This document shows positions 43,818 through 57,910 of a DNA stretch of 64,000 bases, piece after piece. Position numbers and translations under genes: made by a program. How positions within the stretch are numbered: the stretch's first letter is position 1; each line of letters opens with the position of its first letter. Source of the DNA: Patescibacteria group bacterium (GTDB lineage Bacteria > Patescibacteriota > Minisyncoccia > Phycocordibacterales > JACOZG01). The notes beneath the pieces are model-generated. The model was given only the letters and a program-made list of their open reading frames with translations, ran no database searches and had not been told where the DNA came from. The stretch is taken from positions 81,321-145,320 of the forward strand of contig JBBTQW010000002.1 of the NCBI GenBank assembly GCA_038065495.1. Direction: 5' to 3'.

Positions 43818-43848
43818 GAAATTTTGGGAAAATAAAAAAGCCACCGGA

Positions 43849-44181
43849 TTAGGGTGGCTCGACGAAAAATGCTTCCATCATCGTCGTTTTGATTCTAGAA
43901 GAGAGATCTCCTTCGATGATCTTGGGAATAACCTGACTAATCAAGTTCAAGAGAACTCGTGTATCTATCTCTGTGAACTGTTCAGCAGTCCTTCCGGACG
44001 ACTCAAGATCGACAATCTCAAGCTCTAGTTTTTCGAAAAGTTTTCGCGCCAATTTTTCCTCTTTCTTGTAAACCTTGACCTTGCAGAAGGTAAAGGCAAG
44101 AACGAAGAAAATTTCCACCGTCGGATGATTCATATTCATATTAACTCCAATCTTCAAAGACCGTGAGCGGCACGTTGCCAC
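43849..44181 (-). CDS. hypothetical protein (about 96-110 aa)
   Basis: ORF only; start uncertain (possibly MNMNHPTV). Confidence 0.3.
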   Translation of the reverse strand: MATCRSRSLKIGVNMNMNHPTVEIFFVLAFTFCKVKVYKKEEKLARKLFEKLELEIVDLESSGRTAEQFTEIDTRVLLNLISQVIPKIIEGDLSSRIKTTMMEAFFVEPP

Positions 44182-44305
44182 CTTATCTAGTGATAGACTA
44201 CAAAACTACAACACACTGTCAAGTCTTGACAAAATGTGGTGTAATCACGCCACAGGCGGACAAGTTTTCTGGCAATCCTCCTTCGCCAAGGCTACGGCGG
44301 GATAA

Positions 44306-49893: not shown

Positions 49894-50949
49894 CTATTTT
49901 GGATTCGAGAAGAGACCAGACTTTTTATCTTCTTTAAAGAATTTAGGATTCTTGAGGTTAACTAAGATAGTATTATCTTTGACATAACGCTCTTTCTTCA
50001 CAGCCGCCATCACTTGAGCTTTCGTCATCGCGCCATTTTTGTCGAGAATTTGCTTAATCACGTCGCGAACAATACCCGGCGTGTAGCCCCAATCGCCAAG
50101 CGCATATAATCCCCGCCCAACGAGCACGAATCTCGGATCTTTAATTAATTCATTGTGACTAGTCGCGGCATTAGTTTTGCGACCAAAGGTGGCCGTAATC
50201 TCTTTGGCGACTTCGGTAAAGTGCATTGGAGAACCCTTGCGACGCATGACGAGGAAAGCGTAATCTTTGATCCCTCTTACGCGCACATTTGGCGACTTGG
50301 CCAGGCCCCACTCGCCCACCGGACTCAAACCAATCTCTTTGGAGAGCTTGAGCCAGTTCTTGACCTTCTGCCGAGCCATCTCTGGCGAGACGCGTTTATC
50401 CAAACCACTCATAAAGTGCTCCACAATTTTATCTTCAGAAACTAATTCGTTAGTATCGAGAACTTGGCAGAGATTGCGTAGTGACTGATGCACGCCTTCG
50501 GCGAGGCTCGCATCCACCGTCCAACGATGATGGAAATAATCATCTTCTTTTAGTTTCGCAAAAGCGTCGCCGAGCACAAGCAAGAAGTGCACATTATTCT
50601 GGACCACCTGATCTTTAGAAATATGATCAAGAAACTCCTGCTCGTGCACCAGGCCGCCGTAATCTTCCATCACACCCTTGAGCTGGGCAAAGATTGACTG
50701 AGCAGCTGTATTGGCCTCAGACTTCTTGATCTGCGCAATCGTGGCATTCTCAATCTGCCGCACGCGCTCGCGGGTGATGCCATAGATCTGGCCCACCGCC
50801 TCCAGTGTCATCGTCTCTTTCGTCGCCAAGCCATAACGACGCTTAACTACGTCACGTGGCCGCGCCCCAAGGCTGGCCAAAAGCTCTTTTACCACCTCAA
50901 CTGGCTTGAAGGCCATCACCTCTTTTGTTTCTTTGCTGTTGTTATTCAT
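49894..50949 (-). CDS. sigma-70 region-4-like HTH domain protein fused to an unknown ~280-aa C-terminal domain
   Basis: TLEAVGQIYGITRERVRQIENATIAQIKK is a canonical sigma70 region 4.2 HTH; regions 2 and 3 are not detectable. Confidence 0.55.
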   Translation of the reverse strand: MNNNSKETKEVMAFKPVEVVKELLASLGARPRDVVKRRYGLATKETMTLEAVGQIYGITRERVRQIENATIAQIKKSEANTAAQSIFAQLKGVMEDYGGLVHEQEFLDHISKDQVVQNNVHFLLVLGDAFAKLKEDDYFHHRWTVDASLAEGVHQSLRNLCQVLDTNELVSEDKIVEHFMSGLDKRVSPEMARQKVKNWLKLSKEIGLSPVGEWGLAKSPNVRVRGIKDYAFLVMRRKGSPMHFTEVAKEITATFGRKTNAATSHNELIKDPRFVLVGRGLYALGDWGYTPGIVRDVIKQILDKNGAMTKAQVMAAVKKERYVKDNTILVNLKNPKFFKEDKKSGLFSNPK

Positions 50950-53900
50950 GTTTTTATATTATCATAGATTACAAAATTAAGCAAACGTCCTGGGATATAA
51001 ACTACCTTTTTTACCGTTTTATTGTCAAGCCACTTCTGCACTTTAGGGCTCTGTAGAGCCATATTCTTGGCTATTTCTTCTGTTGCTTCTTGCCCGCCAC
51101 TCAACACGATTTTGTCACGAATTATACCATTGACCTGAATCATAATATTTTGCTCACGTGTTGTAGTTTTTTCTCCAGATTCACTCAGTTCTGGCCACTT
51201 CTCTTGATGAATCGAGGTGTTATGTCCCAACTTTTGCCACAATTCTTCTGCGATGTGCGGCGCAAAGGGTGCGAGAAGCTTAAGAAAAACTTCATAATCT
51301 GTTTTACTCACGCCTTCTTTCTCAAAAGTGTTCAACAAAATCATCAAGCCAGAAATAGCCGTGTTAAATTTGAGACTTTCAATATCTGATGTTATTTTCT
51401 GCACCGAATCAGCTAAATTTTCTGCAGTTTTTTCTGACAGATTATCACTCAATTTCCAGACTCTCTCCAAGAATCTTCTTGGCCCAATTATACTTTCTGT
51501 ATTCCAAGCCACCGCTTGCTCAAATGGACCCATGAACATTTCGTACAATCTCAGCGTATCAGCGCCATAAAGTCCCACAATTTTATCGGGATTAATGATG
51601 GTCTCCGGCTTTGACTTACTCATCTTCACTCCACCTTCAGCGAGAATTAAGCCGTGACTCGTACGCTTCTGATACGGTTCAGAATTTGGCACTAATTTGA
51701 GATCAAATAAAAATTTATGCCAGAATCTAGAATAGAGCAAGTGCAGAGTCGTGTGCTCCATGCCACCGTTGTACCAATCCACGCCGCCAAGACTTGTTCC
51801 AGTTTTGCCTAGCCAATATTGCAATTTTTCTTCACTCGCAAATTCTTGAGCATTTTCTGGATCGCAGTAACGCAGATAATACCAGCTTGAACCCGCCCAG
51901 TTCGGCATCGTGTCAGTTTCTCGCCGCGCTTCGCCGCCACATTTCGGACATTTCACATTCACCCACTCACTCACGCTCGCGAGTGGCGATTCGCCGTCAT
52001 CACGGGGTTGATATTCTTTGACTTCCGGCAAAATCACTGGCAAATCACTTTCTGGCACAGGTTGCCAATCACATTTGCTGCAAAAAATCATCGGAATCGG
52101 CTCACCCCAATAGCGCTGTCGCGAAAAAATCCAATCGCGCAGTTTGTAAGTCGTTTTCGCCGTGCCAAATTTCGCGATTATTTTTTCCCGCGCCTCAACA
52201 GAATCTAAGCCGGAGAATTCGCTGGAATTTATCATTACACCTTCGCTAGCCCAAGCATGTTCGGGTTTAAAGAACCGGTCGAGCCACAGCTCGTATTCTG
52301 AACATTTGATATTTTTGTCTTTCGCCAGTTCGTCCCAAGTTAGCCAAACGACTTCATGAATCTGTTTCTCCTCTTCCGACAACTCTTGCTGTTCTTCGTT
52401 CTCTAACTCAAAAACCAGAGCGTGAAAAACCGCTTTTCGGTTCTCGTTCTTGTGATTAGCAAAGAAATGCGACTCGACTGGACCACCTAAAGTTTTCACA
52501 TACTTCACATTTTTATAGCCGGTTTCTTCGGTAATTTCTCTTTTTGCTGCTTCCACCATATCTTCGTCACCCTCGATCCCACCAGTGATAAATGTCGTCC
52601 AGGGAAATTTTTTCCACTTCAAACACAAAACTTTCTGATTTTTGGGATTAATAATTATCGCCTGAATGGCATTTCTCGCTACCGTTTTCACGCCTTCGCG
52701 CGGCGGATCGTGGGTGTCGATCATTTTGGGCGTCACCACTTCTCTAATCGGTAAATTATGTTTCTGCGCAAAAGCAAAATCCCGCTCATCATGGGCCGGC
52801 ACGCCCATCAGTGCGCCGGTGCCCACATCAGACATTACATATTCTGCTTCCCACACTGGAATCTCCTCCCCCGTGGCCGGATTAGTCACATACTGGCCAG
52901 TAAATTTATCGGTTTTGCCAGCAATGGCCAGATAAGTCGCGCCGAAAATCGTTTCTGGCCGAGTGGTGAAGACTTTGATCACCCCACCCGCACCCTCCCC
53001 CAAGGGGAGGGCTAAGTTTATTTGCTCCAAAACTTTTTTAATGTTATTTAAAACCTCTTCGTTGCTGAAACGAATAAGTTTATAGCCGAGTTGTGCCAAA
53101 TATTTTGTTCTTTCTTCGTCAGATTCCTTTTGATAATCATGAACATCCCCGTCAACTTCTACTACCAACATTTTTTCTAGACAAACAAAATCAACAATAA
53201 ATTTTCCAATAATATGTTGGCGGCGAAAGTGGCAACCTAGTTTATTGTCTCTTAATTCTTGCCACAATTTCTCTTCAGCTTCAGTAGGATTCTGACGCAT
53301 ACCCACCGCTTTTTCTTGTAAAGCGCGGTAGGCGACTGGATCAGCAGTTTGATAGCCAAATTCGCCCCACCCATTCCCTCCCCCAAGGGGAGGGTTCTTT
53401 CTCTCTTCCCCCTCTCCTTTGGGGAGGGGGTCGGGGGTGGGGCTGAATGGAAACTCAATCTCCGCTCCCTCACTTCTCCCAATCCAATTTCTCTGCTGGA
53501 TTTTGATTTTTTCTAAATAGTCTACCGTGTCCAGATCTTTATCCAATCTGTCCGCATACTTCGTAATCGCCAGCATCCATTGCTCTTTCTCTCGTTGTTC
53601 CACTTCCGTACCACAACGCTCACACTTACCATCAACCACTTCTTCATTCGCCAAACCAATTTTATCTTTCGGACACCAGTTAATTAGCGTTTTCTTCTTA
53701 TACGCCAAGCCGTGCTGATAGAACTGCAGAAAGAGCCATTGCGTCCATTTGTAATATTCCGGATCAGTGGTGTTGATCTCGCGTGACCAATCAAATGAGA
53801 AGCCAAGCGCTTTGAGCTGTTTACGAAAGTTATCCGTATTTTCTTGCGTCACCAGTGCCGGCGCTTTGCCCGTTTTGATTGCGTAATTCTCTGTTGGTAG

Positions 53901-54161
53901 ACCGAAAGCGTCCCAGCCCATCGGATAGAGCACGTTCTGACCCATCATCCTCCGCTTTCTCGCCAAGATATCCAGCGCCGTATAACTCCGGATGTGACCG
54001 ACATGCAAGCCATCACCAGACGGAAACGGAAACTCCACCAAACAATAAAACTTATTTTTTTCTCCCGCTTCGCTTTTTTCTTGCGCAGAATAAATACCAG
54101 ACTTCTCCCATTCCGTCTGCCATTTCTGCTCTATTTGATTGTGATCGTAAGCTTCAGCCAC
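50946..54161 (-). CDS. leuS: leucyl-tRNA synthetase carrying an in-frame DUF559 endonuclease-fold insertion (1071 aa)
   Basis: HIGH-type motif (HVGHIRSY), CP1 editing motif TTRPETIFGATY, KMSKS and the anticodon-binding domain are all present. About 160 extra residues lie between NWIGRSEGAEIEF and VFTTRPET. Confidence 0.9.
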   Translation of the reverse strand: MAEAYDHNQIEQKWQTEWEKSGIYSAQEKSEAGEKNKFYCLVEFPFPSGDGLHVGHIRSYTALDILARKRRMMGQNVLYPMGWDAFGLPTENYAIKTGKAPALVTQENTDNFRKQLKALGFSFDWSREINTTDPEYYKWTQWLFLQFYQHGLAYKKKTLINWCPKDKIGLANEEVVDGKCERCGTEVEQREKEQWMLAITKYADRLDKDLDTVDYLEKIKIQQRNWIGRSEGAEIEFPFSPTPDPLPKGEGEERKNPPLGGGNGWGEFGYQTADPVAYRALQEKAVGMRQNPTEAEEKLWQELRDNKLGCHFRRQHIIGKFIVDFVCLEKMLVVEVDGDVHDYQKESDEERTKYLAQLGYKLIRFSNEEVLNNIKKVLEQINLALPLGEGAGGVIKVFTTRPETIFGATYLAIAGKTDKFTGQYVTNPATGEEIPVWEAEYVMSDVGTGALMGVPAHDERDFAFAQKHNLPIREVVTPKMIDTHDPPREGVKTVARNAIQAIIINPKNQKVLCLKWKKFPWTTFITGGIEGDEDMVEAAKREITEETGYKNVKYVKTLGGPVESHFFANHKNENRKAVFHALVFELENEEQQELSEEEKQIHEVVWLTWDELAKDKNIKCSEYELWLDRFFKPEHAWASEGVMINSSEFSGLDSVEAREKIIAKFGTAKTTYKLRDWIFSRQRYWGEPIPMIFCSKCDWQPVPESDLPVILPEVKEYQPRDDGESPLASVSEWVNVKCPKCGGEARRETDTMPNWAGSSWYYLRYCDPENAQEFASEEKLQYWLGKTGTSLGGVDWYNGGMEHTTLHLLYSRFWHKFLFDLKLVPNSEPYQKRTSHGLILAEGGVKMSKSKPETIINPDKIVGLYGADTLRLYEMFMGPFEQAVAWNTESIIGPRRFLERVWKLSDNLSEKTAENLADSVQKITSDIESLKFNTAISGLMILLNTFEKEGVSKTDYEVFLKLLAPFAPHIAEELWQKLGHNTSIHQEKWPELSESGEKTTTREQNIMIQVNGIIRDKIVLSGGQEATEEIAKNMALQSPKVQKWLDNKTVKKVVYIPGRLLNFVIYDNIKT
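52993..53011. repeat. 19-bp near-palindrome ccctcccccaaggggaggg (copy 1), flanking the DUF559 insertion
   Basis: Identical 19-mer at 53376..53394; both copies preceded by ccccaccc. On the coding strand it encodes PLP(K/L)GEG. Confidence 0.8.
53376..53394. repeat. 19-bp near-palindrome ccctcccccaaggggaggg (copy 2)
   Basis: Direct copy of 52993..53011. Because the unit is near-palindromic, the pair also acts as terminal inverted repeats. Confidence 0.8.
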
Positions 54162-54188: not shown

Positions 54189-54749
54189 TTACTGATTCTG
54201 ACTTAACTTCTTAATCCCCAACCAGATTAGAGCAATCAGCGCGACCGCGAGGATGATTAAGCGCAAGTAATCGTTCATGTCACTCCAGTAACGAGTAGAG
54301 CCGACGATGAGCGAGACCACGCCGCCAAAGGAGACACCGAGTGAGACGGCGCCCGACTGCGTGAGCCAGAAGCCCGCGCCGAGCGAGAGCAAACCCAGCA
54401 CGATCAGCACAATGAACACGTTGCGATTATAAACTTTGTGCACTTCATTATATTCTTTCGCACAAGTGAAAGTGACATCGCAGTAGCCCTGCGGTTCAGC
54501 CGGCGTGAGCGTGGCTGGCACAGTTACAGGCCGTGGCTCTTTACTGAAGCTTGCGGGAGCGTTCCAAGCACCACCCACGCCCACACAATCCTTCTCATTA
54601 CTTGGCGAAATGTTGACTTGCTTCTGCGGGCAATAAGTGTCCCACGTTGGCTCCTGATAAACCACCTTGGTCGCAAAGTGGAAGAACAAATTGAGCACAA
54701 TAATCAGCGACAAGATTAGTGCCCATTCCAAAATTTTTGAATGTTTCAT
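54189..54749 (-). CDS. hypothetical membrane protein (186 aa, 3-4 TM helices, Cys-containing extracellular loop)
   Basis: TM helices at the N-terminus and C-terminus; no recognised family. Confidence 0.45.
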   Translation of the reverse strand: MKHSKILEWALILSLIIVLNLFFHFATKVVYQEPTWDTYCPQKQVNISPSNEKDCVGVGGAWNAPASFSKEPRPVTVPATLTPAEPQGYCDVTFTCAKEYNEVHKVYNRNVFIVLIVLGLLSLGAGFWLTQSGAVSLGVSFGGVVSLIVGSTRYWSDMNDYLRLIILAVALIALIWLGIKKLSQNQ

Positions 54750-54785
54750 CTCTAAATCTTAACACGAATCAGAAATAGTTCCGAC

Positions 54786-54815
54786 TTGACAGAATTGGCA
54801 CAGTTTGCTAAGAAT
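54786..54815 (+). promoter_or_regulatory. promoter TTGACA-N17-TAAGAAT upstream of alpha-CTD-like gene 1
   Basis: The 20-mer tttgctaagaatgtaagtgg is repeated (19/20) at 55528 upstream of gene 2. Confidence 0.5.
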
Positions 54816-54911
54816 GTAAGTGGTCAAGGTCTTCGAAATTACAGATTGCAACGCGTGTTGTGATCACCAAAATTGGTTAGAGGAACAAAACAGAAAGGTA
54901 CAGGGTAAAAC

Positions 54912-55448
54912 ATGTCCATGGGAATCTACTCCGATGTGACGGCGAAATACGAAACAACGAATCCAGCCACAATACCGCCACTTGAACTCACCTCGAAAGA
55001 CACCGTGTTTCTAAGTGAGATAGCGGGTAATTGTGAGCCCATCAACGAACACTCGGTGAGGATTCTCGTTCTTGTTGGACGTCGAGTCAGGAAAGAACAC
55101 GAGAGGTTGACTCTCCTTTCGGATCAAAGAAAAAAGTCTCACGAAGCAGAATTGGTTGCATTGAGAGAAACACACGAGGGTAGATTAGAATTGTTGAAGG
55201 TTCAACACGCAGATGAGGTTGGGAATCTCAAAAGGCAGCTATTCAACTCTCACAAGTCCATCTTCGAGATTGAAATCCAATTCACGGCTTCACAAAAACG
55301 CAAGCTGCAGAGAGCTGGCCTCGCTCGTCTCTATGACTTCACCCAGAAAACATGGGACGAAATCAAGCAACTGCTTGGCACGAGAAAGGCTGACCTAATC
55401 GGCCAAGTACTTATCCTTCGTGGCCTTCAGTTCAAGAAATGCCGGTAA
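54912..55448 (+). CDS. protein with a C-terminal RNA polymerase alpha-subunit CTD-like HhH domain (178 aa)
   Basis: C-terminus SQKRKLQRAGLARLYDFTQKTWDEIKQLLGTRKADLIGQVLILRGLQF aligns with the alpha-CTD pattern (L.RAG.....D..Q.T..E...L.G..K.........L...GL.F). Confidence 0.55.
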   Translation: MSMGIYSDVTAKYETTNPATIPPLELTSKDTVFLSEIAGNCEPINEHSVRILVLVGRRVRKEHERLTLLSDQRKKSHEAELVALRETHEGRLELLKVQHADEVGNLKRQLFNSHKSIFEIEIQFTASQKRKLQRAGLARLYDFTQKTWDEIKQLLGTRKADLIGQVLILRGLQFKKCR

Positions 55449-55455
55449 CCAATCA

Positions 55456-55493
55456 ACCACCAGAGCGCAACGCGCTCTGGTGGTCTTTTTATT
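55456..55493 (+). terminator. intrinsic terminator (accaccagagcgc-aac-gcgctctggtggt + T-rich tail)
   Basis: 13-bp perfect stem followed by cttttatttcc. Confidence 0.7.
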
Positions 55494-55510
55494 TCCAAGA
55501 ATTTATCTGC

Positions 55511-55540
55511 TTGACAAAGTTAGCCCAATTTGCTAAGAAT
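55511..55540 (+). promoter_or_regulatory. promoter TTGACA-N17-TAAGAAT upstream of alpha-CTD-like gene 2 (duplicate of 54786..54815)
   Basis: Same hexamers and the same downstream GTAGGTGG motif as copy 1. Confidence 0.5.
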
Positions 55541-55582
55541 GTAGGTGGCAATAGTGCCTTTTGACAGAAAGTAGGTAGACAC

Positions 55583-55846
55583 ATGAAATCTGGGTCCTCA
55601 CTGCAATCGTTATTCATGGTAAAGTGTCTGGTTGACGAACTAATTCTCGACCGACCAATTACTGAATTGGGATTATACCAAAGAGCAGAAAACATTCTGA
55701 GATCAGTCCATATCGACACCATCAGAAAGCTCACCCAAAGCTCTGAACGTGTGTTTCTCTCCTACCGTGGGGCAGGAACAACCTCACTGAAAAGTATCAA
55801 GCGTGAGCTAAACAAACTGGGTCTTTCGTTGCAACAAGAAACCTAA
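55583..55846 (+). CDS. standalone RNA polymerase alpha-CTD-like HhH domain protein (87 aa)
   Basis: ITELGLYQRAENILRSVHIDTIRKLTQSSERVFLSYRGAGTTSLKSIKRELNKLGLSL matches the alpha-CTD consensus (EL.L..RA.N.L....I.T...L....E......G..SL..IK..L...GLSL). Confidence 0.6.
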   Translation: MKSGSSLQSLFMVKCLVDELILDRPITELGLYQRAENILRSVHIDTIRKLTQSSERVFLSYRGAGTTSLKSIKRELNKLGLSLQQET

Positions 55847-55868
55847 GATCAATTAGCTCGATATTCGT

Positions 55869-55900
55869 AACCGGAGCACACGCGCTCCGGTTTTTTATTT
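55869..55900 (+). terminator. intrinsic terminator (aaccggagc-acacgc-gctccggtt + TTTTTTATTTTT)
   Basis: 9-bp stem plus a long T tract. Confidence 0.7.
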
Positions 55901-55961
55901 TTCTAAATTTTGAATTCCAGAACCCGCCTTCGCTAAAGCTACGGACGGGCAAGCATCGCCG

Positions 55962-56951
55962 TCAGATTTTAAACTCAATTACATCTCCGTCACTCACCAC
56001 ATAATCCCGCCCAACCGTACGCCAAGTTTTGCCGGCCAGTAAATCTGGCCAAGTAATCACTTCCGCTTTGATAAACTTTTCTTGGAAGTCGCCATGGATC
56101 GCCGTGCCAGCCTCGGGCGCCGTCCAGCCTTGCTTGATCGTCCAAGCCCGCGTTTCGTCCTCGCCAGTGGTAAAATATGTGGCTAAGCCGAGCAAAGCGT
56201 AACTCTGTTTGATGAGCTCATCCAAGCCGGTGTTGAAAATCGCATCAACTTCCACCCACTTCGCGCCTTGTCCGGCCATCAGATTTTCTAAAGCTTTCGT
56301 ATCCGCTTTGGCGCCAGCCGCTTCGGAATTATTGAAAACATAGAGCATCGGCTTGGCGGTGAGCAAGTGCAAACTCTTGAGCAAGATTTTTTCTTCTTTA
56401 TCTAAACTTAATTCTGACACTAACTTTCCCTGTTTTAAAATTTCTTCAAGTTTTTTCAACAACTTTTCTTCAAGAACTGCCTCTTTATCACCCCGACGCA
56501 CATCTTTCCCAATTGTCATCAAGCGCTTTTCAACTGTTTGCAAATCTGCGAGCGCTAATTCTAAATTGATAGTTTGCACGTCATCCAGTGGAGAGACTTT
56601 ATTATGCACATGGATAATATCTTTATCGTCGAAAATCCGCACCACCTCCGCAATCGCATCCACTTCGCGAATGTGCGAGAGGAATTTATTACCCAAACCC
56701 TCACCACTCGCCGCGCCCTTCACCAAGCCAGCGATGTCTACGAATTCGATCACCGCTGGCACTGTCTTGGCTGACTTGGAAAAATCTGACAATTTCTGTA
56801 ATCTCTCATCTGGCACCGGCACCACGCCCACACTCGGATCGATAGTACAAAATGGATAATTTTCTGCCGGAACAGACTTCTTCGTGAGCGCATTGAAGAG
56901 CGTGGACTTCCCCACATTTGGCAGGCCGACAATGCCGATTGAGAGCTTCAT
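55962..56951 (-). CDS. ychF: ribosome-binding ATPase YchF (Obg-family GTPase, short form)
   Basis: MKLSIGIVGLPNVGKSTLFNALTK G1 motif, DIAGLVKGAASGEGLGNKFL, and a TGS-like C-terminal domain. Confidence 0.85.
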   Translation of the reverse strand: MKLSIGIVGLPNVGKSTLFNALTKKSVPAENYPFCTIDPSVGVVPVPDERLQKLSDFSKSAKTVPAVIEFVDIAGLVKGAASGEGLGNKFLSHIREVDAIAEVVRIFDDKDIIHVHNKVSPLDDVQTINLELALADLQTVEKRLMTIGKDVRRGDKEAVLEEKLLKKLEEILKQGKLVSELSLDKEEKILLKSLHLLTAKPMLYVFNNSEAAGAKADTKALENLMAGQGAKWVEVDAIFNTGLDELIKQSYALLGLATYFTTGEDETRAWTIKQGWTAPEAGTAIHGDFQEKFIKAEVITWPDLLAGKTWRTVGRDYVVSDGDVIEFKI

Positions 56952-57080: not shown

Positions 57081-57794
57081 TTAACAGAAAGATCTGCGCC
57101 GGCGAGGAAACAGAGGGAGTGAACCCAATCCGGCGATTGCCAGCGTCGCTGGTTCCGGCACCGGGCGATAGTCATAAGTGACTTTCGCGGTCAGGTTGAG
57201 AACCGGGTTCTCCACCTCTAGTTGCCACGAATCGGGCACATACGGCCCGAAGTTCGCCGTCTGGAAGATCACGTCCGGCGTGAACATGAAGTCCGCTGTG
57301 CCTGCGCCCAGATACGCCGCAAGCGGCTGAGCAGGATGTGAGACGGTCAATGTGGCATACGAGACGGTGCCAAAGTTGTGACCGTCTGGGCCAGAACTCT
57401 GGAAAACATCGTTATTACCACCATCGCCGTCATCCGGAGTAAGTGGGACCGAGGCTGTGTTCACAATCTTGGTATCGCCACTCGCGAGGCCGGCCGGGCC
57501 AGTCACTGACCACGAGCGAATCAGCTGACCTTGGACAAACAACTGCTGACCATGGTCAAACGGATCGTCGTTATCGGCCTGCAGATCCACCGAGCCATCA
57601 TGGCAAAACTCCACCAGCACACCGACCAGCTCGCGCGTGCCACCCATGTCGTCGAACTTGGGGACACTCACCACCACGCTCGGCTGGAGCGCACTCTCGA
57701 ACGAGTTCGATCCACTCACCATGTACGAATCCGCGCGCGCCGCGCTGGCCGTGAGCAACACGGCGACCATCCCCACCAAACTGGGAACTTTCAT
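57081..57794 (-). CDS. secreted protein with a C-terminal PEP-CTERM sorting signal
   Basis: Signal peptide MKVPSLVGMVAVLLTASAARA; C-terminus PVPEPATLAIAGLGSLPLFPRRRR (PEP motif, TM helix, Arg cluster). AAGGAG RBS before the internal ATG. GC-rich. Confidence 0.6.
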   Translation of the reverse strand: MKVPSLVGMVAVLLTASAARADSYMVSGSNSFESALQPSVVVSVPKFDDMGGTRELVGVLVEFCHDGSVDLQADNDDPFDHGQQLFVQGQLIRSWSVTGPAGLASGDTKIVNTASVPLTPDDGDGGNNDVFQSSGPDGHNFGTVSYATLTVSHPAQPLAAYLGAGTADFMFTPDVIFQTANFGPYVPDSWQLEVENPVLNLTAKVTYDYRPVPEPATLAIAGLGSLPLFPRRRRSFC

Positions 57795-57910
57795 ACTCAA
57801 ACTCCTTCTTGTCGAAGAACAATTTAGCCGCAAACCCTGCAGCCTTGGGAAGTTAGACGAAAATCTAACCAACTTATACCCTAGCAGATTTGCAAAAACT
57901 TGTCAAATAT

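Follow-up and report, generated by a model that had tools for sequence, protein, structure and literature searches.

A strain-variable slot of predicted small transcription units in uncultured Patescibacteria carries a free-standing alpha-CTD family protein and an orphan with a predicted alpha-CTD-like fold

In bacterial transcription, UP elements are recognised and activators contacted mainly through the C-terminal domain of the alpha subunit of RNA polymerase (alpha-CTD). We asked what two small adjacent genes in a genome of an uncultured bacterium of the Patescibacteria (candidate phyla radiation, CPR) represent, whose products had been read in an initial annotation as a tandem, duplicated pair of free alpha-CTD-like proteins. 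The genes lie in a stretch of 64,000 nucleotides (GenBank assembly GCA_038065495.1, contig JBBTQW010000002.1, positions 81,321 to 145,320 of the forward strand), which we call the window and to whose first letter all coordinates below refer. They encode proteins of 178 and 87 amino acids, here named after their open reading frames (ORFs) as ORF178 (54912-55448, +) and ORF87 (55583-55846, +); in databases, identical proteins are labelled "hypothetical protein, Patescibacteria group bacterium". Our analysis suggests that the earlier interpretation was half right, in that the locus holds one true free alpha-CTD (ORF87) and one fold-level look-alike (ORF178), and that it was wrong on duplication. 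In the reading that we consider probable, the two genes occupy a strain-variable slot of independent units, in which ORF178 is an orphan unrelated to ORF87 with a similar fold and the repeats around the genes are cassette boundaries.

ORF87 truly belongs to the alpha-CTD family (Pfam PF03118, RNA_pol_A_CTD) and is distinct from RpoA. It scores 35.2 bits against the family profile (cut-off 23.8, E = 1e-8) over profile positions 10-66 of 67, and the domain, which spans approximately residues 18-86, aligns over these residues with residues 5-73 of the B. subtilis alpha-CTD structure 3ihq_B (E = 2.9e-7). About 45 of the 49 PDB sequences matched by ORF87 are RpoA chains. Eight NCBIfam rpoA models also match, via the C-terminal 65 residues only, and the rpoA equivalog models give 36-41 bits against cut-offs of 228-523; a score of 19.9 bits against NCBIfam PRK07758 (cut-off 115) places the protein outside that family as well. 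A BLASTP comparison with an approximate E. coli alpha-CTD sequence returned no alignment. With 87 amino acids in total, ORF87 has neither the N-terminal dimerisation and assembly domain nor the linker of RpoA, and thus cannot assemble into RNA polymerase. A six-frame scan of the window detected no other alpha-CTD signal, rpoA included. The earlier description of this protein as a free-standing alpha-CTD with its own promoter and terminator is supported.

We then compared ORF87 with alpha-CTD family members both inside and outside RpoA. An exhaustive HMMER search recovered 606 alpha-CTD matches, the ranking being dominated by multi-repeat proteins, and contained no relative of ORF87 above 44% identity other than ORF87 itself; a word-indexed protein search returned ORF87 alone. 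The best single-domain scores were to alpha-CTD repeats of non-RpoA proteins (40.8 bits) rather than to RpoA (33.9 bits). Members of PF03118 outside RpoA have already been catalogued and include proteins that combine tetratricopeptide repeats with two alpha-CTDs, multi-repeat proteins, PRK07758 (95 amino acids), a region of the BREX protein PglW, and phage proteins. ORF87 shares with this group a G-x-T-S-L signature, matching their common G-E-T-S-L, and differs from it in being a single domain of 87 amino acids with at most 44% identity to any of them. We know of no non-RpoA PF03118 protein with a tested function, and our search of the literature on free alpha-CTD proteins found no paper testing one.

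To map individual residues, ORF87 and the alpha-CTDs of E. coli and B. subtilis were aligned with hmmalign to a hidden Markov model (HMM) of the domain. For the 265 determinant, which in E. coli numbering we take to comprise R265, N268, G296, K298 and S299, the comparison called for by the initial annotation gave a mixed outcome: R34, N37, G65 and S68 of ORF87 occupy the positions of R265, N268, G296 and S299, respectively, residues that contact the minor groove and the backbone of DNA, and the position of K298 is held by Thr67. At the position of E261, ORF87 has Gly30. That both K298 and E261 are lost speaks against ORF87 being an exact mimic of alpha in its UP-element and sigma contacts. Threonine at the K298 position is also found in 81% of the non-RpoA alpha-CTD repeats recovered by HMMER.

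ORF178, in turn, resembles alpha-CTD in its predicted fold. Run on an alignment of five ORF178 sequences, AlphaFold2 gave a model (predicted local distance difference test score, pLDDT, of 73) with a disordered N-terminus (residues 1-20) and a short helix, then a long helix spanning residues 46-113 (about 68 residues), probably a coiled coil, and finally four short C-terminal helices, which form a four-helix domain of the paired helix-hairpin-helix, (HhH)2, type at residues 124-170; residues 22-45 make up a conserved N-terminal segment. The presence of an additional N-terminal region beside the (HhH)2 domain, as first described, is supported. When the C-terminal 67 residues (112-178; 55245-55445, +) were modelled alone, the prediction was confident (pLDDT 88.7), showed the four-helix (HhH)2 fold of alpha-CTD and superposed on alpha-CTD with 2.0 Å over 62 residues; alpha-CTD is the nearest solved fold to the domain as modelled. 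A Foldseek search with ORF178 gave no match at E ≤ 1e-3, and its top matches in the viral structure library BFVD, all weak, were small phage proteins annotated as alpha-CTD.

At the level of sequence, the link between ORF178 and alpha-CTD is weak. ORF178 has no sequence match in Pfam, NCBIfam, PHROG, PADLOC or PDB, and Pfam yields none even at E ≤ 1, whether the whole protein or the C-terminal domain alone is used as the query. A custom alpha-CTD HMM scored it at about 5 to 5.9 bits, and hhalign against alpha-CTD returned a probability of 20% (P = 1e-3) over 52 colinear columns, with a query profile of only five sequences. Because of this weak sequence-profile link, we describe the C-terminal domain of ORF178 as alpha-CTD-like by predicted fold only and do not place it in the PF03118 family. 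The proposal that both proteins end in, or consist of, a domain aligning with alpha-CTD is thus only partly confirmed, the support for ORF178 coming from the predicted fold, and the PF03118 search suggested along with it separates the two, ORF87 scoring above the gathering threshold and ORF178 not at all. In the hhalign register, Ser126 of ORF178 falls at the R265 position, and there is no equivalent arginine. Beside this position, the helix Q128-K-R-K-L-Q133 (QKRKLQ) is invariant in the family.

This family is small. Sequence and profile searches of 5.8 billion proteins recovered relatives of ORF178 in only five clusters, with 52-99% identity and no Pfam domain in any of them, and no homologue was found in the GTDB species-representative genome set or in IMG/VR. 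Comparison with four homologues gave ratios of nonsynonymous to synonymous substitution rates (dN/dS) of 0.13-0.40, indicating purifying selection on a real gene. Between the window and the sibling contig L002, dN was 0.12 for ORF178 and 0.038 for the adjacent ychF, so that the ORF178 protein evolves about three times faster. For the same pair of loci, dS was lower in ORF178 (0.31) than in ychF (0.68), a noisy estimate, which hints that lineages exchanged the cassette more recently.

We next turn to the elements that flank the two genes, all of them predicted. A 39-nucleotide direct repeat lies 5′ of each ORF, with 85% identity between the copies at 54785-54823 (+) and 55510-55548 (+), and contains TTGACA, a 17-nucleotide spacer ending in TGC, and TAAGAAT. 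In the promoter-like unit of ORF178, the −35 element TTGACA occupies 54786-54791 and the −10 element TAAGAAT 54809-54815; in that of ORF87, the corresponding positions are 55511-55516 and 55534-55540. Over TTTGCTAAGAATGTA(A/G)GTGG, 19 of 20 bases match between the copies, and the full promoter pattern occurs twice in the 64 kb against an expectation of 0.00. Each gene is followed by a predicted intrinsic terminator: that of ORF178 (55456-55494, +) consists of a hairpin at 55456-55484 with 13 pairs (9 of them GC), a 3-nucleotide loop and a T run, and that of ORF87 (55869-55902, +) of a hairpin at 55869-55892 with nine pairs (six GC), a 6-nucleotide loop and a T run; the homologue of the latter in the sibling contig L008 shows compensatory changes in the stem. 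Hence, the observations that the same promoter architecture precedes both genes and that each has a strong terminator of its own were correct. Perfect TTGACA promoters with TAnnnT −10 boxes also precede other genes of the window, and part of the promoter resemblance therefore reflects the consensus promoter of the organism.

The leaders of the two genes carry different elements. The 5′ leader of ORF178 contains a hairpin at 54844-54865 (+), GATTGCAAC-GCGT-GTTGTGATC, with nine pairs including G-U. RNAalifold on five loci retains all nine pairs, with one pair changed on both sides and several changed compatibly on one side, and the whole leader, folded as a single sequence, is no more stable than shuffled sequences (z = −0.96). 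The hairpin might serve regulation or the stability of the mRNA, or it might be an inverted repeat of the operator type. Just 3′ of the ORF87 −10 element, the leader motif GTGGCAATAGTGCC (55545-55558, +) contains a 4-bp GGCA/TGCC hairpin; the window contains this motif twice, with 0.02 occurrences expected, and the second copy lies at 44169-44181 (−). Within the coding regions, we also noted a perfect 14-nucleotide inverted repeat, GAGAGAAACACACG / CGTGTGTTTCTCTC, with one arm in ORF178 (55163-55176) and the other in ORF87 (55748-55761). We considered it as a site of mRNA-mRNA pairing and rejected this idea: genomes with only one of the two genes still keep the arm inside that gene, so the match is probably due to chance.

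To see how the two genes behave in relatives, we compared the slot, defined as the stretch between the membrane-protein gene and ychF, across contigs encoding homologues. The combination of ORF178 and ORF87 is found in the window and in L004, L005, L007 and L012, and ORF87 stands alone in L008 and L006. Homologues of ORF178 occur together with other small genes: L002 and L010 carry a 176-residue version (ORF176) and a 91-residue zinc-ribbon-like protein; L001 a 76-residue orphan and ORF168; L003 a 73-residue orphan, ORF178, the 76-residue orphan and a unit without ORF; and L011 a unit without ORF, ORF180 and the start of another unit. The content of the slot is thus variable among these genomes, and since ORF178 and ORF87 are each dispensable in some relatives, both are probably accessory.

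A listing of CTTGACA over the slots gave 14 promoter-like units with the same −35 element, a spacer of about 17 nucleotides and a TA-rich −10 element, and every internal CTTGACA promoter sits about 20 nucleotides past the T run of a terminator. The leader GT(A/G)G(G/C)TGGCAATA(G/A)TGCC is common to the units of ORF87, of the 76-residue orphan (L001), of the 91-residue protein (L002) and of the 73-residue orphan (L003), with divergence only downstream, whereas the ORF178 units have a different leader, the one with the conserved 9-bp hairpin. In L001, L002 and L011, the −10 element of the ORF178 promoter is TAGTTAT and not TAAGAAT, and the 19/20 promoter identity is therefore a local mosaic specific to the lineage of the window. 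L008 corresponds exactly to the window once everything between the two CTTGACA repeats is taken out, with the upstream flank of the first promoter joined to the spacer of the second, which is the outcome to be expected from recombination between the repeats. These comparisons do not support the proposal that a whole module was duplicated: ORF87 occurs alone in L008 and L006, ORF178 is accompanied by unrelated small genes in L001 to L003, and the promoter and terminator similarity is no mark of duplication, as the same design bounds unrelated units.

Further units of this kind were noted in passing. At about 43840-44222 (−), the window holds a third unit of the same design. A terminator comes first, then TTGACA-16-TAGTCT and the leader GTGGCAACGTGCC; the ORF that follows, an orphan of about 96 amino acids, has no Pfam match and is succeeded by a terminator with the TTTTTTATTTTCCCAAAATTT junction. 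In L003 (3014-3141) and L011 (69-190), promoter and terminator enclose no plausible ORF. The RNAs of these two non-coding-looking units fold well, with z = −4.4 and −4.7, the terminator hairpin included, into a closed multi-branch body followed by the terminator, and none of the non-coding-looking units has a match in Rfam. They may be novel small RNAs.

How, then, are the two genes best explained? The explanation we favour, and hold to be probable, starts from the slot: between the membrane-protein gene and ychF, it would hold from one to four transcription units that are independent of each other. Each would begin with a consensus sigma-70-type promoter (CTTGACA, 17 nucleotides, TA..AT) and a short leader, continue with either a small gene or a non-coding-looking RNA, and close with a strong intrinsic terminator. 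The near-identical promoters and similar terminators would form common cassette boundaries, and recombination between them would add or remove units. ORF87 could be a small accessory protein whose alpha-CTD surface binds either the minor groove of A/T-rich DNA or another protein, with whatever effect on transcription this may entail. ORF178, in turn, a lineage-restricted orphan, would be a dimeric nucleic-acid-binding protein, which might dimerise via its long helix and use its C-terminal domain, with its hairpins and its basic first helix, to bind nucleic acid.

Several points speak against this explanation. Thr67 of ORF87 replaces K298, a residue required for UP-element binding by E. coli alpha, and the genuine rpoA of the genome lies outside the window. 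The promoters, the terminators and DNA binding are predictions from sequence, and the distinct versions of the slot in the comparison number only about six and come without exception from uncultured genomes that are closely related. Furthermore, a scan for the promoter-plus-leader pattern found 0 further instances in the GTDB species-representative genomes, and the same scan in the metagenomes of the Joint Genome Institute (JGI) gave two matches, one duplicating L002 and one arising by chance inside a gene, which leaves one real instance.

The most substantial competitor concerns ORF178 alone, and we regard it as possible, if less likely: the C-terminal domain might be a generic (HhH)2 or SAM-like domain, maybe related to the thumb of Y-family polymerases or the N-terminus of RAD51, and the protein an adaptor in DNA repair or for DNA structures, or an RNA-binding protein. 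By comparison, the original proposal of a tandem duplicated pair acting together as decoys against RNA polymerase alpha at UP elements or activators appears unlikely. No significant similarity connects the two proteins, which cannot be called paralogues on the evidence of a best BLASTP E value of 0.31 over 12 residues and of the profile score of about 5 bits. Some sibling genomes have one of the genes and lack its partner, and genes unrelated to either are flanked by promoters and terminators of the same design. ORF178 has no R265 equivalent, and ORF87 has neither K298 nor E261. The only hint in favour of the decoy idea is that the junctions of T run and A-tract upstream of the internal promoters resemble UP elements. 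This hint also enters a broader version of the idea, to which we assign very little probability, in which a recombination-driven array of plug-in units carries free alpha-CTD-fold proteins (ORF87, and ORF178 as a dimer) as a chromosomal alpha-CTD decoy system. Here, the units of the array would have in common a strong promoter, a leader with a 5′ hairpin, and a terminator whose T run, with the A-tract after it, resembles an UP element. The proteins would attach to these A/T-rich junctions or titrate partners away from the alpha-CTD of RNA polymerase, thereby tuning the array or UP-dependent promoters.

A further candidate reading involves phages, and the initial annotation had called a decoy-like mechanism reminiscent of phage strategies. 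The genes could be phage-derived, moron-like or defence/anti-defence genes acquired horizontally, with ORF87 as a phage-type alpha-CTD that appropriates host transcription. Phage morons are independent promoter-gene-terminator units inserted between conserved genes, and the slot units are like them in having their own promoter and terminator, in lying between conserved genes and in varying in presence among close relatives; moreover, BFVD contains the small phage proteins annotated as alpha-CTD mentioned above, and ORF87 weakly matches an alpha-CTD-like region of BREX PglW (in PADLOC, the only match in a defence database). Nevertheless, tblastn against 50,697 phage records gave no match, there is no relative in IMG/VR and no match in PHROG, so no sequence link to phages was found. 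The flanking genes leuS and ychF are housekeeping genes, and the GC content of the slot is the same as that of neighbouring genes, on which ground a foreign composition of the slot was rejected. In further contrast to morons, the slot units are chromosomal, have no prophage context and form an array with one promoter, leader and terminator design. We therefore see a phage origin as quite unlikely. Finally, ORF87 might be a functionless leftover of a disrupted or duplicated rpoA, as the homology of its domain to the C-terminus of RpoA could suggest. This we judge extremely improbable: ORF87 is equipped with a promoter, a leader, a start codon and a terminator of its own, no remnant of the alpha N-terminal domain lies nearby, and its best single-domain scores are to non-RpoA alpha-CTD repeats and not to RpoA. 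The ORF87 alleles of L006 and L008 differ from that of the window at five nucleotides, all five of them synonymous, from which it follows that the gene is real; the earlier view that a fragment of a disrupted rpoA is unlikely holds for ORF87.

The locus can also be compared with known systems. Relative to the RNA polymerase alpha-CTD (PF03118; 1z3e_B, 3ihq_B, 1lb2_B), ORF87 aligns with the domain along its entire length and has residues equivalent to R265, N268, G296 and S299, whereas the modelled C-terminal domain of ORF178 is alike in fold, fails the family HMM and has no R265; both proteins are without the N-terminal dimerisation and assembly domain and the linker of alpha. The slot itself is reminiscent of integron cassettes, being an array of small, variable and mostly orphan genes at one chromosomal site. 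It differs from them in that each unit has its own CTTGACA promoter and terminator and that the boundaries are promoter and terminator sequences. No integrase gene was found among the adjacent genes, and no attC-like sites were seen at the slot.

The surroundings of the two genes agree with their first description. ORF178 and ORF87 are the sole plus-strand genes amid a long run of minus-strand genes, in which leuS (50946-54161, −) and a membrane-protein gene with a 186-residue hydrophobic product (54189-54749, −) lie upstream of the slot, the latter between leuS and ORF178, and ychF (55962-56951, −) lies downstream. The leucyl-tRNA synthetase encoded by leuS has 1071 residues, and precomputed Pfam matches show DUF559 (endonuclease-like) and NUDIX domains as insertions in it; that of a sibling genome has 1013 residues, and a NUDIX match is not listed for it. 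Next to leuS, a gene at 49894-50949 (−) encodes a 351-residue protein with a sigma-70 region 4 (residues 23-76) and a HARE-HTH domain (residues 227-287), without other sigma regions, and the gene of this protein also adjoins leuS in L002. On the other side, the C-terminus of the 263-residue protein encoded at 57081-57872 (−) weakly matches a PEP-CTERM-like motif, with 19.4 bits for a cut-off of 20.7; the GC content around this gene is higher (0.57-0.60), and in relatives the gene is replaced or diverged (237-241 residues).

Taken together, the main value of this analysis lies in a corrected picture of a variable small-gene slot and in ORF87 as a clean candidate for probing the function of free alpha-CTDs. 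The outcome is a sound annotation rather than a demonstrated mechanism. ORF87 is a divergent, single-domain addition to the uncharacterised non-RpoA alpha-CTD proteins, and ORF178 adds an orphan family with a related predicted fold. Free alpha-CTD copies are annotated in many genomes and in phages, and to show that they act as decoys, anti-activators, nucleoid proteins or in any other role would add something new to biology. Beyond these two proteins, the locus shows how small orphan genes of the reduced CPR genomes can be packaged as self-contained promoter-leader-terminator units that are gained and lost at one site, which makes it a tractable example of accessory-gene turnover in uncultured bacteria.

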